Of a stretch of 15,836 nt of DNA, positions 3,001-9,000 are shown one piece after another; position 1 is the first letter of the stretch, and each line of letters opens with the position of its first letter. The stretch lies in NCBI GenBank assembly GCA_036478295.1, contig JAZGDW010000154.1, positions 1 through 15,836 on the forward strand, in the 5' to 3' direction. This stretch comes from Candidatus Krumholzibacteriia bacterium. GTDB taxonomy: Bacteria; Krumholzibacteriota; Krumholzibacteriia; WVZY01. The position numbers are program-made.

Positions 3001-6000
3001 AAGGGGCGTGCCGCCGATCGTGCCGCGAACCAGCACGCGATCGCGCTCGCTCTCGTCACCGGCGAACTCGATGTGCAGGTCGAAGACGTCCGACCACACG
3101 TAACTCAACAAGTCGTAGGTTCTGCTGTCACCGGTCATGTTGAGACCGGCGACCTGGCCGCAGTACTCGGCGTGGCCCCAGTGTTCGACGCGGCGGCGTT
3201 TGTCGAAAACCGGATCCGGATAATTCACGACATCGCCGGCCGCGTATATGTCTGGGTGCGAGGTCTGCAGGTGCTCGTTGACCACGATGCCGTCTGTGAC
3301 CTCCAGGCCGGCATCTTCGGCCAGGCGTGTCTCCGGGCGGATGCCCACGCCCACACACACGAAATCGCACCGCACCGTCCGGCCCGAGGCGGTAACGGCG
3401 CCCGTCGAGCGCCCGGCTCCGGGCAGGGCGGTGACCTTGTCGCCGGTGATGAAGCGCACTCCCCTGTGCTCGCAGTACTCCTGCACGAAACCGGCCAGCG
3501 AGGTGTCCAGGAAACCCGGCCAGATGTGCGGCAGCGCCTCGACCACGGTGACCTCGACGCCGAGTGCGGTCAGCGACGCAGCCGCCTCCATACCGATGAA
3601 CCCCCCACCGATGACCAGCGCGGCCCCTCCCGAAGCCGCACGGCGCGCAATCGCCTGCGCATCGTCCAGCGATCGCAGGTAGAAGACACCGTCGAGGTCT
3701 GCGCCTGGAATGTCGAGACGTACCGGTTCGCCACCGGTGGCGATGAGCGCCTTCTCGAACGTGATGTGCCCGCCGCCGGCGAGATGCGCCGTGTGCGCGG
3801 CGACATCCAGCCCTTCGACCGGGTCACCGAGAAGGGTCTCTATTTGTTTTTCTTCGAAAAACGTGCGGGGTTCGAACAGGAGTTGTGACGGTTCCTTCTC
3901 GCCGCGCAGGAACTCTTTCGACAACGGCGGCCGATCGTAGGGCAAGTGAGGTTCTTTTCCGACCAGCGTGATGGCGCCGGCGGCATCCTTCATACGGATG
4001 AGCCTGGCGGCGTGCATGCTCGCCATACCGCCGCCGATGAGCAGGTAGTTGGTTTTCATCGGGGTTCCCCGCGTGCACGGCCGGCCGTCGGCCTCGACGT
4101 TCCGGGGGGTGCTGTCACTCGCGCCACGGAACGGGGAGGTTCAGCCTCTCTAGCTTGGCTTCGAGTTCGTTTCGTTCACGATTGCGCTTCCATCCCTTTT
4201 CTCCCCGTCTCAACCAGCCGAATTCCGTAGCGAGTGCGATGGCGCGCTCTTTGTCACCTCCGCCCAGCGCGGAGATGATCTCGCTGTCGAGCCGGGTCAG
4301 GTTAAGGGTGTGCCGGTAGTAATCTAGAAACGCCTCCCACACCACCGGGCACCAGCGGCTGACGATTTCGTAACCGATGGCTCGTGAATAGGCGCGAATC
4401 TCCTCCTGTGCGTGGTCATCCAGGCGCAGTGACAGGAAGTGGAGGAGGTTGTGGAGATCGATCTTCCAGTACGCCTCCGTGTACGTGGAGAGCGGCAGAT
4501 CCTTGCGCGCCTGTTCCCGCGCGACACCGGTGTCGAGGCGTTCCTGGTAGACCTGCCGGCTGAGTTCCTGCAATTCGGCTTCACGCCTGCTGAGCTCCGC
4601 GCCCTTGTCCTCGTCGACCCATCCGTCGCTGCCCTGTTTGCTGGAGACGGACTGCGTGCGCCACTGGCCGGCCGGCGTGCGCTGCGCGGAGTCGATGGCA
4701 ATCGAATAACGGGTGGAGTATTCGTTGACGTTGGCCGTGCGGTGGCGGATCCACTGCCGCCAGCAATCCATGGGTACGCGGACATGCAGCTTGATCTCGC
4801 ACATCTCGAACGGTGTCGTGTGCCGGTGGCGCAGGAGGTAGCGAATCAAGCCCCGGTCCTCGGAGACCTTTTTCGTGCCCTTGCCGTAGGACACGCGCGC
4901 GGCTTGCACAATCGATTCGTCCGAGCCCATGTAATCCACGACACGGACGAAACCGTCGTCGAGCACCTTGATGGGCTTTCCGAGAATCTCATCCAGCGCC
5001 TCCGCGCTCGGGCGCTCGTGTCTTTCCTCACCGGTCGTCATCGAGCGGCTCCTGGCTCAGGATCAAAACCACAGGTTGAAAAGGCCATAATATATTGAAA
5101 AAGCGGAGGTTGTCAATCGGTCACTCGCCCCGGCGGACCGCCTCGAAACGCTCGTCGTAGAGGGGCGCCGTGTCGCGCCAGTCGTAGCGCCGGGCCGCTT
5201 CGCGGAGGTCATGCGTCTCGAGGGACGTGAAGTTGCAGACGGCCTCGTCCAGTTTCTCCACCAGTTCGTCGAATTCCTCGTAGAAACATGCGGAATACCG
5301 CTCTTCGGGGATGAGCTCCGGGTAGGCGAGCCGCCGCGGCAGGATGGGAAAGCACCCGCAGTACATCGCTTCGAGGACGCTGCCGCCGAAGAAATCCTGG
5401 TTGGAAGTGACGGGCAGGATGTGCGAGCGCCACAGCCACCCGGCGTATTCACGGCGGCTGGCGACGTATCCCGAATGGATGATGCGCTCGCCCAGTGCCG
5501 AGGCGCCCGCGAGAAACGGTGCGGGAACGACGTCGAAGACCTCGCCCACCAGCGCGACGTCGAAGGCCCGGCCGCGCCCGGCGACCAACTGCAGGGCGGC
5601 GAAGAAATCCTCCGGGTTCTTGTCGTACTCCCAGCGATGGTTCCACAGGACCAGCGGCCGCGGACTCTTCACGCCCTCGGTGGCCGGTCGATCCCCGGCC
5701 GCATCCAGCGAGTGCAGGTCGAAGCCGAGTGGTAGTACTTCACACTTGCGCCGAATAACGGCCACCTGGCCCAGTTCCTGGTGGTCGGGGAACTGTCTCA
5801 GAAACACCGGCAGCGCTTCGAGGAACGAGTTCATGTGGTAGCGCGAATTAAAGAACACGCGGTCGCACGCGAGGGCGGACACAAAATTGATAAAGCTGTA
5901 GTGACGGTCCCATGCGCGGCGCTTGTCGCGGTCTTTCGGTGACCAGGGATAGGTCAGCTGGTTTTCATGAAAGTAGATGGCGGTGGGGATGCCGGCGGTG

Positions 6001-9000
6001 ACCTTGCGCGTCAGCGCCAGGAAGGCGCCCATGTCGAGCATGTCGGTCGCCAGCAAGAAATCGGGCCGGTAGCCGCCCGCGAGGAACCGTTCGGCCAGCG
6101 TGACAGCGCCGCCGTGCATGCGCCATTTCCAGTGGCTGCCGCTGAGCTCGAGTATCTCCACGCGGTGCCGGCTGTGCGCGGCGAGACCTTCCGCCCAGGA
6201 CGCGTGGGATCCGGTGTAGAACGGTTCGAGCAGGACGATGTTCATGGACGCAGCCGGTCGTCACCAGCTCCTGGTGGGCAAGTCGTTATGGAACCGGCGT
6301 CCCTAGGCGGCAAGCGCCTGGCCCAGGTCCGAGATGAGATCGTCGGCCGCTTCGATGCCGACCGACATGCGCACCAGCGTGTCCGAGATGCCGCTTCGTT
6401 TCAGCTCGTCGCCGGAGAGACCCGCATGAGAGGTAACCGCCGGTCGCGTGAGCAGGGATTCCACACCGCCGAGACTGGGTGCGATCAGCGGAATACGCAC
6501 CGACCGCATGAACCGGTTGACGTCGTCCAGGTCGCCCTTCAGCTCGAAGCTCAACATGCCGCCAAACCCGTCGAACAGCTCACGTGCTCTCTCGTGCTGT
6601 GGATGATTCTCCAGCCCGGGGTAGTTAACGCTGGCGACCGCCGTGTGCGAGTCGAGGAATTCAGCGATCTTCTGTGCGTTGTCATTCTGGCACCGCACGC
6701 GCAGTGCCAGGGTCTTCAGCCCACGATGCAGCAGAAAACACGCGTGCGGGTCGAGCGTGCCTCCCAGGTGGTCGGTCTTGAACTTGGTTGCCTTGACGAG
6801 GTCGCCCCTGCCGATGACCGCGCCCGCCACAATATCGGAATGGCCGTTCATGTATTTGGTGCAGCTGTGCAGCGACAGGTCGAACCCCAACTCGGCCGGG
6901 CGAAAGTTGATCGGGCTGGCAAACGTGTTGTCGATCATCGTAATCAGGTTGTGCGCGCGGGCGAAGTCGACGACCGCCTTCAGGTCGCCCACGGTCATCA
7001 ACGGGTTGGCGATGCTCTCTACGTAGAACACCCGCGTGCCGGGACGAAGCTTCGTCTCCCACGAGCCCGGGTCATCCGCATCGACCAGGTCATGTTCGAT
7101 CCCGAGTCTCGGGAGATCCTTGAGCACCAGGTCGTGGGTGCCGCCGTAAAGACAGTTCTGGATCAGTATGTGGTCTCCCGCCGACAGCACGGCCAGCAGC
7201 GCGGTCGAGATCGCCGCCATGCCGCTCGCGGTGACGAGGGCGTCCTCGGCGTTTTCCAGAGCCGCCATTTTCGTGGCGAGCGCGACGTGGTTGGGCGTGT
7301 TGTTGAGCCGGATGTAACGGATGTCGTGATAGCCCTCACCCCCGAAAGTCTCGAACGTCGAGGACTGAAAGATCGGCAGGCTCACCGCGCCGTCCATGCG
7401 GGGCACCGGCTCACCGGCGTGGACCAGCTTGGTTTCGATGCTCTTGTAATCTTCGGTCATGTATTTCTCCTTTGACCCCGGAACCGGATTGACAGCTGCC
7501 GCCGATTTGCCGATGGTGGTGCTGTCGCGCGGGCGATGACCGTACCATCATAACACAAGGGGGGCGGGTGCGCTATCCCATCATGATTATCGTCGTTATC
7601 GCTGCAGCCTACGGGCTGCTGTGTCTGCTGGCGTACATTTTTCAACCGAGGCTGGTGTTCTTTCCCGACCGGCGCATGGGACCGACCCCCGTGCAACTCG
7701 GCGTGACCTACAAAGACGTTTTCTTCGAAACGGCGGACGGCGTCAGGCTGAACGGATGGTTCATTCCCGTCGAGCGGGCCAGCGGAGTGCTGCTTTTCTG
7801 CCACGGCAACGCGGGCAACATCTCGGACCGTCTCGAATCGATCCGTATTTTTCTAGACCTGGGACTGTCCGTTTTTATTTTCGACTACCGCGGGTATGGA
7901 CGAAGCGACGGCAGGATAAGCGAAGCGGGCACGTACGCCGACGCCCGCGCCGCCTTCGATTACCTGGTCGGCGAAGCGAAGGTGCCGCCGGGGCAAATCA
8001 TCATATTCGGCCGCTCGCTGGGCGCGGCGGTGGCGATCCACCTGGCGTTCCATCAGCGGCCGCGGGCGCTGGTCGTCGAGTCGGCGTTCACCTCCATCGC
8101 CGACATCGGACAGCGGGCCTATCCATTTCTGCCGGTGAAGTGGCTGTCGCGCATCCGGTACGATTCCACACGCTGGGTCCCCACCATGGACGTTCCCAAG
8201 CTCTTCATTCACAGCCCGGCAGACGACGTGGTGCCGTTCGACCTCGGTGAGCGCCTGTTCGCCGCGGCGGCGGAGCCCAAGACATTTCTCTCTATCGGCG
8301 GTGACCACAATGCGGGGTTTATCGATTCGGGAAACCTTTATATGGATGGATGGAGAAGTTTTCTCGACGCGGTGGAATGAACCCGCGCGAGCACTATGGA
8401 TTCTTCTGGGACTCCCTGGCCTTGCGCTGCCTGCGTTTCCACTTGTACGGCGCTTCGAACTTCGGTTTCGGCACGGCGCGTGACGCATCGACGATCCGCT
8501 GGGCCAGGTCGGGAAACCCGCTGTCCCCGTAGTAGCTCACCGTTTCGTACGCGAGCCCCATGCGAATCAGCCGCACGGCCAGCAGTTCTCCATCGACGAA
8601 GATATGGGCGAGCGTGCGGCGGTAACGGTCCCGCCCACCCGAGACGTATTCGATCCGTTTCGCCCGTGTCAGCATGACCCGGGTGGACTCGGCCGCCGCC
8701 TCGCCGTACGGCTGGCCCTCGTGAATTCCCAGGGCGGCGTGGGCGATTTCGGGTGTGTCGATACCGAGGACACGAATCGGTTTGCCCTTGATAAAAAACG
8801 TATCGCCGTCGTCGAAACGCACGTCGGCGAGTGCGACGGGTTTGGCGCCGCGGTAGGAGGGATGGTAGCCGTGCGGCGAACATGCGGCGAACGAGAGTGC
8901 CGCGGCGAGCGACAATAAACACTTCCAGTAATTCGCGCGCATGTGACTTTTCCGAAATCGGTGGTTAATTGAACTCGGAACCGGCGCCGTAGCGTACGCC

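Follow-up and report, generated by a model that had tools for sequence, protein, structure and literature searches.

The window, the whole 15 836-nucleotide stretch of DNA analysed here, lies on a contig of a Candidatus Krumholzibacteriia bacterium and encodes a protein of 374 residues with the following features.

5121..6245, minus strand: QTMAN-family GT-B glycosyltransferase gene, 374 residues (open reading frame and translation, stop codon included)
5724..6242, minus strand: QTMAN_N domain, residues 2–174, the presumed acceptor-binding half (Pfam, 200.4 bits, and six-frame search)
5946..5975, minus strand: YFHENQLTYP motif, residues 91–100, at the predicted end of strand 88–92 and in the following loop
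5193..5675, minus strand: C-terminal GT1-type, nucleotide-sugar-binding domain, residues 191–351 (Pfam Glycos_transf_1, 30.2 bits)
5619..5639, minus strand: HRWEYDK motif, residues 203–209, including K209 (alignment of 30 sequences)

The gene is present once in its genome, and the ATG start of the open reading frame matches the N-termini of homologues in the alignment. The initial annotation had placed a GT-B glycosyltransferase of this length here with a QTMAN_N score of 199.8 bits (E = 4e-60); both domains were found again, and the present match to QTMAN_N, Pfam PF12038 (E = 2.4e-59, model positions 1–167 of 168, cut-off 25 bits) is the same result. The C-terminal domain also scores 27.6 bits against Glyco_trans_1_4 and resembles a GT1 fragment (PDB code 5i45) with an E value of 1e-4 in a PDB sequence search. 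The whole-model QTMAN_N match is followed at once by the GT1/GT4-type domain, within a single GT-B fold. The AlphaFold2 model of the protein (pLDDT 88.3, pTM 0.87) consists of two Rossmann-like halves, and its best Foldseek matches are retaining GT-B enzymes, with E values of 1e-9 to 1e-14. No PDB entry proved to be a relative by sequence or fold search. MshA, BshA, PimA, GlgM and BGluT share the overall retaining GT-B fold (query-normalised TM-score 0.60–0.70) but differ in having 11–16% identity and no QTMAN_N-type N-terminal domain by sequence. These enzymes act on small molecules, lipids or glucans; BGluT is a tetrahydrobiopterin glucosyltransferase and, like MshA and BshA, a small-molecule structural neighbour.

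Animal QTMAN (GTDC1) is said to have been identified as a tRNA-queuosine α-mannosyltransferase by Zhao and co-workers in Cell in 2023. It has the same two-domain build, QTMAN_N followed by a GT1-type domain, and aligns with the bacterial protein from end to end; the animal proteins are 430–580 residues long, whereas the bacterial ones have about 370 and are missing the animal insertions. In an alignment of 14 bacterial and 16 eukaryotic sequences the window protein is 28–32% identical to the 16 animal and other eukaryotic QTMANs, in line with the 27–34% given earlier. Thirty-five columns are invariant, including GSH, YFHENQ..YP, FNS and HRWE[YH]DK, and 16 of them fall in the N-terminal half: E7, G12, S13, H14, L78, Y91, H93, E94, Q96, Y99, P100, F132, N133, S134, F141 and P153. 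Six of these (Y91, H93, E94, Q96, Y99 and P100) form the part of the YFHENQLTYP motif that is unchanged in bacteria and animals. In the AlphaFold2 model, 11 of the 16 lie at or just past the ends of strands 2–7, 88–92 and 129–132; in GT-B enzymes such strand ends point to the inter-domain cleft and the acceptor. None of the 30 sequences departs from H203, R204, W205, D208 or K209 in the HRWEYDK motif. Its lysine, K209, corresponds in the alignment to residue 303 of a 465-residue turtle QTMAN and, with the human protein taken by us to be 458 residues long, appears by sequence to fit human K296, the residue for which a part in catalysis is proposed. In passages of a preprint (10.64898/2026.06.28.735034), a human K296A form was made to test the need for K296 in manQ formation.

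In the tree, the bacterial proteins separate cleanly from the animal ones. The branch between the two clades is long (1.14 + 1.75 changes per column), which makes a shift of acceptor between them possible. The protein had been called a bacterial orthologue of QTMAN; it is a full-length member of the family, but only a possible orthologue given the separate clades and the branch between them. Bacterial members that are 46–57% identical occur in Bacteroidota, Balneolota, Desulfobacterota, Chloroflexota, Planctomycetota, Bacillota, Acidobacteriota and other phyla, which argues for one conserved cytoplasmic acceptor. The median isoelectric point over 28 sequences is 5.9, so that the proteins are not basic and overall charge gives no sign of RNA binding. 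We lean slightly towards reading the gene product as a retaining GT-B glycosyltransferase of the cytoplasm, the counterpart in bacteria of animal QTMAN.

A six-frame search found QTMAN_N in 146 of 208 Krumholzibacteriota genomes, which bears out the earlier figure of at least 118 of 207, and 7928 of 8000 scored candidate sequences are hits. Five cultured strains carry the gene (Geomonas paludis Red736, Geothermobacter hydrogeniphilus HR-1, Flavilitoribacter nigricans DSM 23189, Thermohalobacter berrensis CTT3 and Balneola sp. EhC07), and QTMAN_N clusters are present for Actinomycetota in the Atlas listing. The QTMAN family itself is already catalogued. The domain is missing from all 14 model genomes searched, which would explain why such a modification has gone unseen in surveys of bacterial tRNA; E. 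coli, one of the 14, makes queuosine without this family. On the animal side, members occur in echinoderms, molluscs, crustaceans, a lancelet and flatworms, so the initial description of glycosylated queuosine as a vertebrate modification was too narrow; PMC12518689 speaks of 'many animals'. A search for fusions gave eight matches, with peptidase M20/M28, a GH2 β-mannosidase-like region and AAA as partners and, in cestode proteins, zinc fingers or Snf7; none of the eight joins the family to a tRNA-binding domain or a queuosine enzyme. The β-mannosidase-like fusion is a single case, the bacterial member P0123.

The genome that carries the gene encodes TGT (507.6 bits), QueA (392.5 bits), QueF (119.7 bits) and QueG (317.9 bits, above the cut-off). 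The queuosine pathway attributed to it earlier therefore stands for these four enzymes, with QueC represented by a partial match alone (104 bits, model positions 84–204). Its TGT has the canonical GGLAVGE pocket, and tRNA-Asp(GTC) and the remaining GUN tRNAs are present. A ManC-like gene is split across two contig ends (198.6 and 127.4 bits), so that GDP-mannose is probably available. QueA occurs in all 125 high-quality genomes of the phylum, which makes co-occurrence with it there uninformative. The gene is lacking from 62 of the 208 phylum genomes, despite a queuosine pathway in many of them, and in one genus from all 17 genomes, 15 of which have QueA; this counts against queuosine as the acceptor.

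GluQRS from E. coli modifies queuosine of tRNA-Asp; it differs from the present protein in its unrelated fold, that of a GluRS paralogue, and in its ester chemistry. It scores below the cut-off in the carrier genome and is found in one of the 208 phylum genomes. Elsewhere, eight of 61 carriers of a QTMAN-like gene also have GluQRS, which argues mildly against a shared tRNA-Asp target and rules out a mutually exclusive replacement of one enzyme by the other. The abstract of PMC10690763 names GluQRS (YadB), the glutamyl-queuosine tRNA-Asp synthetase, as the one bacterial enzyme known to modify the cyclopentenediol of queuosine-34 further.

Neighbourhoods were clustered from 1101 open reading frames at 80 loci plus the window. 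As the initial annotation had stated, no conserved queuosine neighbourhood exists: none of the 140 immediate neighbours at 73 loci is a queuosine gene, and most are housekeeping genes. What conservation there is amounts to clade-level synteny, the largest neighbour cluster comprising 16 loci from one family. Translation genes adjoin at several loci (SmpB at six, ProRS at three and DeaD at one), and at one locus a TadA-like deaminase gene overlaps the family gene by 4 bp. Some sources use the label 'glycosyltransferase involved in cell wall biosynthesis'. No polysaccharide cluster occurs at the 73 loci, which do not qualify as cell-wall GT4 clusters; DegT-type aminotransferases make up two of the 140 neighbours, both on the opposite strand.

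TGT, the entry enzyme of queuosine synthesis, or QueA is present in every carrier examined. Among 50 diverse carriers QueA occurs in 49 and TGT in the fiftieth, and TGT is found in all 52 distinct Chloroflexota carriers. A sample of 301 Chloroflexota genomes has the gene in none of 42 that are TGT-less, in four of 207 with both TGT and QueA, and in 22 of 52 with TGT only. Joint loss of TGT and the gene was considered for two genomes (G268 and G293) and is ruled out by their intact TGT frames. The initial annotation tied the gene to the de novo pathway, which applies to the carrier genome and is not general, since most Chloroflexota carriers have no QueA. In the carriers' own Chloroflexota class TGT is present in 151 of 151 genomes, so that the TGT-less genomes belong to other classes, and most carriers in that class are probably a single clade. 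TGT is also common in bacteria (ten of ten control genomes). Once kinship is allowed for, the phyletic link between the gene and TGT is weak, and common descent accounts for part of it.

The TGTs read from nine QueA-less carriers all have a GGSLG pocket, and five of these carriers have no real QueC, no QueG and no QueA. In the parts of PMC11570991 consulted, queuine-salvaging bacterial TGTs of the Chlamydia trachomatis type have GG[LS][AS]G and the preQ1 type GGLAVG. In GGSLG the glycine replaces the valine as published, and the leucine at the fourth position is outside the pattern; use of queuine by these enzymes is a reading from a partial fit that comes close to the pattern. The Chloroflexota TGTs differ in an extra insertion of about 20 residues, and their QueA-less carriers are free-living, unlike C. 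trachomatis, an intracellular pathogen. This likeness concerns the partner TGT of the Chloroflexota carriers and not the window gene, whose genome has the GGLAVGE form. Qng1 (PF10343) was found in none of five TGT-only carriers, and the control gave no match either, so that the absence says nothing.

A full-length relative of the animal queuosine mannosyltransferase makes it probable that some bacteria sugar-modify queuosine as well. The route would start with TGT, QueA and QueG installing queuosine at position 34 in tRNAs with GUN anticodons; the QTMAN_N domain would then hold the queuosine-tRNA and the C-terminal domain the nucleotide sugar, and a hexose would be moved onto a hydroxyl of the cyclopentenediol ring. 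By analogy with animal QTMAN, the donor may be GDP-mannose. That the acceptor is queuosine in tRNA seems to us somewhat better than an even call. The earlier designation as a bacterial queuosine glycosyltransferase is borne out as regards family, motifs and the queuosine pathway of the carrier genome; the acceptor, the sugar, the target tRNA and any effect on decoding are inferred.

It is also conceivable, if rather doubtful, that the bacterial clade has kept the QTMAN fold and acts on another cytoplasmic acceptor, such as a small molecule, a protein or a different RNA, its overlap with TGT being coincidence and common descent. The distance between the two clades, the mildly acidic protein and the lack of queuosine genes among the 140 neighbours all favour this, as do the closest solved folds, which are small-molecule or glucan GT-B enzymes; acceptor specificity of glycosyltransferases drifts at about 30% identity. 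The ubiquity of TGT in the carriers' class and in the controls also leaves its co-occurrence with the gene little power. Against a different acceptor, the 16 invariant columns of the N-terminal half are shared by animals and bacteria, mostly at cleft-facing strand ends; the conserved partners usual for small-molecule pathways are missing, the conservation over phyla so far apart suggests that the acceptor is universal, and the gene is in none of the 42 TGT-less genomes.

A target outside tRNA is quite unlikely: free queuine or queuosine, whose glycosylation might serve storage, export or import control, or a deazaguanine in DNA. The gene is indeed commoner in salvage-dependent lineages, as the Chloroflexota counts for TGT-only genomes and those with QueA show, but the substrate of the animal enzyme is tRNA in the literature consulted, and no transporter or DpdA-type gene occurs among the 140 neighbours. 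Three scans of viral contigs likewise gave no relative that could be a phage counterpart. In phage records, a tblastn search matched only the C-terminal domain of a glycosyltransferase from a jumbo phage, which is without QTMAN_N and belongs to no Pfam family, with no annotated deazaguanine gene nearby. It is very improbable that the protein is a mere relic, either dead as a catalyst or with a structural role alone: nothing specific favours it beyond the first acidic residue of the EX7E motif of GT4 enzymes being an aspartate here (D284...E292), and the frame is intact, the model confident, the lysine, arginine and glutamate positions invariant and conservation strong over thousands of bacterial sequences.

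We return to queuosine in tRNA as the acceptor. Sugar-bearing queuosine is treated as an animal feature in the parts of the QTMAN literature consulted, and the silence on bacterial homologues noted earlier persists there: the titles, abstracts and passages found on QTMAN mention none, and the original description of the enzyme may discuss them. New here is that the gene is absent from the TGT-less genomes sampled and persists in TGT-only Chloroflexota lineages. Animals salvage queuine, whereas most bacterial carriers make queuosine de novo. We tentatively propose, at a little short of an even chance, that bacterial tRNA contains glycosylated queuosine made by this family and that some free-living bacteria, here illustrated by a lineage of Chloroflexota, share the minimal toolkit of eukaryotes; just as tentatively, we would define that toolkit as no de novo pathway, a TGT pocket resembling those of queuine salvage and a QTMAN-type glycosyltransferase. 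If bacteria do make sugar-bearing queuosine, the range of a known tRNA modification would extend to another domain of life, and the function of this modification would be open to study in simple organisms. The way in which eukaryotes handle queuosine would in that case be foreshadowed in bacteria or descend from them, and where the eukaryotic toolkit came from could be tested.

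The gene under study encodes a glycosyltransferase related to QTMAN (GTDC1), the animal tRNA-queuosine mannosyltransferase, and the reading at issue is that its product glycosylates queuosine in tRNA. The gene and its setting in the window are as follows.

6303–7460: gene for a Cys/Met-metabolism PLP enzyme (Pfam), upstream of the glycosyltransferase gene
5121–6245, minus strand: gene for the QTMAN-family glycosyltransferase, an intact ORF with an ATG start (374 residues)
5087–5116, minus strand: sigma-70-like promoter site, TTGACA-16 nt-TATATT, with 11 of 12 consensus matches
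4115–5041: thyX (Pfam), downstream of the glycosyltransferase gene

The initial annotation had described a 374-residue protein with a QTMAN_N domain (PF12038) followed by Glycos_transf_1, and this description holds. In Pfam, QTMAN_N matches residues 2–174 with 200.4 bits (E 2.4e-59) over nearly the whole model (positions 1–167 of 168), and Glycos_transf_1 matches residues 191–351 with 30.2 bits. NCBIfam has no model for the protein, and its relatives are named 'DUF3524 domain-containing protein' or 'glycosyltransferase involved in cell wall biosynthesis' in the databases. By sequence, the gene truly belongs to the QTMAN family, of which it is an intact bacterial representative, and its genome has a single copy. 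Since the promoter-like site lies between its stop codon and thyX, thyX is probably driven by its own promoter and the glycosyltransferase gene would close an upstream transcription unit. The window contains no queuosine genes and no tRNA genes. On the minus strand at 68–2752 it also encodes an 894-residue protein with a C-domain similar to heparinase II/III and a sorting tail of the FlgD-Ig or type IX secretion kind.

A word-indexed sequence search returned 7928 matches among 8000 candidates scored. Every one of the best 120 is bacterial or has no named source, and they show 54–77% identity at 91–100% query coverage, except for a 248-residue fragment (93% identity over 62%); the taxa named among them are Krumholzibacteria, Latescibacterota, Anaerolineae, Chloroflexota and Thermodesulfobacteriota. 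From the genome collection at least 597 loci were obtained, and the top 80 (46–57% identity) come from at least eight phyla. Cultured strains among the carriers are Geomonas paludis Red736, Geothermobacter hydrogeniphilus HR-1, Flavilitoribacter nigricans DSM 23189, Thermohalobacter berrensis CTT3 and Balneola sp. EhC07, whereas no member of the family was found in E. coli, a queuosine producer. Searches of viral contigs and phage records brought up no phage relative. The AlphaFold2 model, calculated from a 31-row alignment, displays two Rossmann-like halves (pLDDT 88.3, pTM 0.87) with floppy loops at residues 101–111 and 187–192. Foldseek matched it to retaining GT-B enzymes in the PDB at 11–16% identity, including glycogen synthase, GlgM, MshA, sucrose-phosphate synthase, BGluT, BshA and PimA. 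Neither this fold search nor a sequence search of the PDB turned up a relative, the single sequence match being a GT1 fragment (E 1e-4).

Animal sequences were drawn from flatworms, frogs, fishes, turtles, shark, lancelet, echinoderms, molluscs and crustaceans, and many are labelled tRNA-queuosine alpha-mannosyltransferase in their source records. In an alignment of 16 eukaryotic and 14 bacterial sequences, the window protein shows 28–32% identity to the eukaryotic ones, in agreement with the 27–34% to animal QTMAN reported earlier. Across the 14 bacterial and 16 eukaryotic sequences 35 columns are invariant, of which 16 lie in the N-terminal half (Glu7, Gly12, Ser13, His14, Leu78, Tyr91, His93, Glu94, Gln96, Tyr99, Pro100, Phe132, Asn133, Ser134, Phe141 and Pro153); Trp39, Trp41 and Arg42 are near-invariant. 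In the AlphaFold2 model 11 of these 16 columns are located at or directly past the ends of strands 2–7, 88–92 and 129–132. In the GT-B fold these strand ends face the acceptor-binding cleft, and the N-terminal half is usually variable among families with differing acceptors. Of the sequence evidence, the conservation of this half between bacteria and animals therefore argues most strongly for an acceptor common to both enzymes. The motif HRWE[YH]DK in the C-terminal half is also invariant across the bacterial and eukaryotic alignment. Its lysine, Lys209, aligns with residue 303 of the 465-residue turtle protein and presumably corresponds to human Lys296, if the human protein has the 458 residues that we assume. 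In the passages available of a recent preprint, human Lys296 has a proposed role in catalysis and K296A was made to test its need for mannosyl-queuosine formation (10.64898/2026.06.28.735034).

The maximum-likelihood tree of 44 sequences, from which three long cestode fusion proteins were excluded, separates 14 animal rows and two of unstated source from 28 bacterial sequences. Each clade has 100/100 support, the joining branch measures 1.14 + 1.75 changes per column, and the tree bears no trace of recent transfer. The family's proteins lie on the mildly acidic side, with a median pI of 5.9 for the bacterial (n = 28) and 6.7 for the animal sequences (n = 14), which is at best neutral for the queuosine-tRNA reading. 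So long a branch leaves room for functional divergence, and the main rival reading, in which the bacterial enzyme acts on a different acceptor, is a possibility to be taken seriously, if an unlikely one, set against the conserved N-terminal half. Six crustacean QTMAN records (P0148, P0157, P0194, P0210, P0228 and P0237) combine the family with RRM-type RNA-binding domains (PF00076, PF16367) in one protein, through a genuine fusion or through the merging of gene models.

The earlier claim of a queuosine pathway in this genome stands for TGT (507.6 bits), QueA (392.5), QueG (317.9, above cut-off) and QueF (119.7); QueC has a partial match only (104 bits). The genome's 40 tRNAs include tRNA-Asp(GTC), two tRNA-Asn(GTT), tRNA-His(GTG) and tRNA-Tyr(GTA), all GUN tRNAs. 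A ManC-like gene is also present, in two pieces at separate contig ends that score 198.6 and 127.4 bits. GluQRS was not found in the genome, its two matches being below cut-off and both in GluRS-sized frames. Elsewhere it occurs in one of 208 genomes of the same phylum, Krumholzibacteriota, and alongside the QTMAN-like gene in 8 of 61 carriers (genomes with a QTMAN_N gene), so there is no either-or pattern; tRNA-Asp as a common target would imply competition between the two enzymes.

For the neighbourhood, 1101 ORFs were called and clustered in 80 loci and the window, and 73 loci yielded the homologue. The largest neighbour cluster spans 16 loci, all of one family, and none of the 140 immediate neighbours (Pfam, 73 loci) is a queuosine gene. 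These neighbours are assorted housekeeping genes. None of the 73 loci is a polysaccharide cluster; DegT-type genes occur just twice, each time on the opposite strand. Neighbours with a link to translation are SmpB (six loci of a single lineage, divergent), ispG-X-proS on one strand (three loci) and DeaD (one locus). In a single KSB1 locus the end of the QTMAN-like gene shares 4 bp with a gene for a TadA-like deaminase, whose top NCBIfam hit is tRNA adenosine(34) deaminase (84.8 bits, below the cut-off of 150). The neighbourhood fits a stand-alone housekeeping enzyme and speaks neither for nor against a queuosine link. Fusions are rare and little informative. One bacterial protein, P0123 (1244 residues, a single cluster), is a putative fusion of a complete QTMAN-like glycosyltransferase with a region resembling GH2 beta-mannosidases (Glyco_hydro_2_N2, 201.5 bits; Mannosidase_ig; Ig_mannosidase), and is the lone hint of mannose.

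Among 50 diverse carriers 49 have QueA, the exception being a Caldilineae genome with a canonical TGT. Several carriers (G004, G018, G030, G049, G050 and others, including Balneolaceae) have two full-length QueA matches, of about 420 and 380–390 bits; by sequence the second is a QueA paralogue. Within Krumholzibacteriota, 146 of 208 genomes (99 of the 125 of high quality) have QTMAN_N, where at least 118 of 207 had been reported, and 198 of 208 (125 of 125) have QueA, a pattern without usable variation. One genus of this phylum lacks QTMAN_N in all 17 genomes, 15 of which have QueA; queuosine producers can thus do without the gene.

Chloroflexota proved informative: the 301 genomes sampled (completeness of at least 90% requested) have QTMAN_N in 26, QueA in 207 and a TGT match in 259.

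QTMAN_N by TGT and QueA content in 301 Chloroflexota genomes
TGT and QueA: 207 genomes, 4 with QTMAN_N
TGT only: 52 genomes, 22 with QTMAN_N
Neither TGT nor QueA: 42 genomes, 0 with QTMAN_N

TGT is above the Pfam cut-off in all 26 carriers, and in 52 of 52 distinct carriers when both Chloroflexota samples are combined. Without QueA, QTMAN_N occurs in 22 of 52 genomes with TGT versus 0 of 42 without (Fisher's p 1.9e-7, kinship ignored). In the class holding most carriers all 151 genomes have TGT and 45 have QTMAN_N, so the TGT-less genomes sit in other classes and kinship weakens this contrast. A long TGT form, assigned by match length only, is present in 41 of the 45; four genomes of the class have it without a QTMAN_N gene and two more are ambiguous. 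It looks as if long TGT and QTMAN-like gene were both inherited within one clade. The other four carriers (G611, G618, G651 and G671; class of G422) have divergent QTMAN_N matches of 70–101 bits, possibly a second subfamily, and TGT of ordinary length. The tallies include nine genomes flagged unpublished, all non-carriers, and the conclusions are the same without them.

The long TGT scores 458 against an NCBI Tgt equivalog cut-off of 306.75. In seven QueA-less carriers the TGT pocket reads CIGG-SLG[GAE][DN]K, versus AIGGL[AS]VGE in canonical enzymes including that of the window's genome, and FDEL versus [FL]DEC or LDHV (canonical Chloroflexota) and FDYC (the window's genome); an insertion of about 20 residues follows DSGGFQVFSL. 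GGSLG recurs in the TGT of two more QueA-less carriers. According to the available passages of PMC11570991, queuine-salvaging TGTs typically have GG[LS][AS]G, and in GGLAVG the valine would be in steric conflict with the queuine diol. Both GGSLG and the salvage pattern lack this valine, whereas Leu at the fourth position of GGSLG is outside the published pattern; the pocket thus appears close to the salvage type, short of a match. Five TGT-only representatives have no QueG, no QueA and no real QueC (only long frames matching at about 20 bits). In one of the five, at the Chloroflexota locus L099 (1–2805), genes for an ECF S-component and a CbiQ/EcfT-type protein come after the GGSLG TGT in the same orientation, in what looks like a salvage transporter operon. 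With this gene content and pocket, TGT-only carriers seem to reach queuosine in tRNA solely by uptake of the ready-made base while keeping the QTMAN-like gene, the same configuration as in eukaryotes. The pairing is not obligatory, since 17 TGT-only non-carriers read out of 30 comprise five GGSLG, seven GGLAGD and one canonical pocket, with four not parsed. Many QueA-less Chloroflexota also have a second TGT paralogue (375 residues, pocket GGWPLD and DDCT; 302.9 bits, just below the NCBI Tgt cut-off), the end of which overlaps an FmrO-type 16S rRNA methyltransferase gene in L105 (4604–5731 and 5724–6524) and L106.

The QTMAN family is already catalogued and the window gene is a further member. 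Those parts of the QTMAN literature available to us mention no bacterial homologue or bacterial glycosyl-queuosine, and the original QTMAN paper may discuss them. That the gene product glycosylates queuosine in tRNA is the best-supported reading, a prediction we hold to be somewhat probable. Queuosine glycosylation in bacteria, as predicted here, would be cheap to test and of interest to tRNA specialists.
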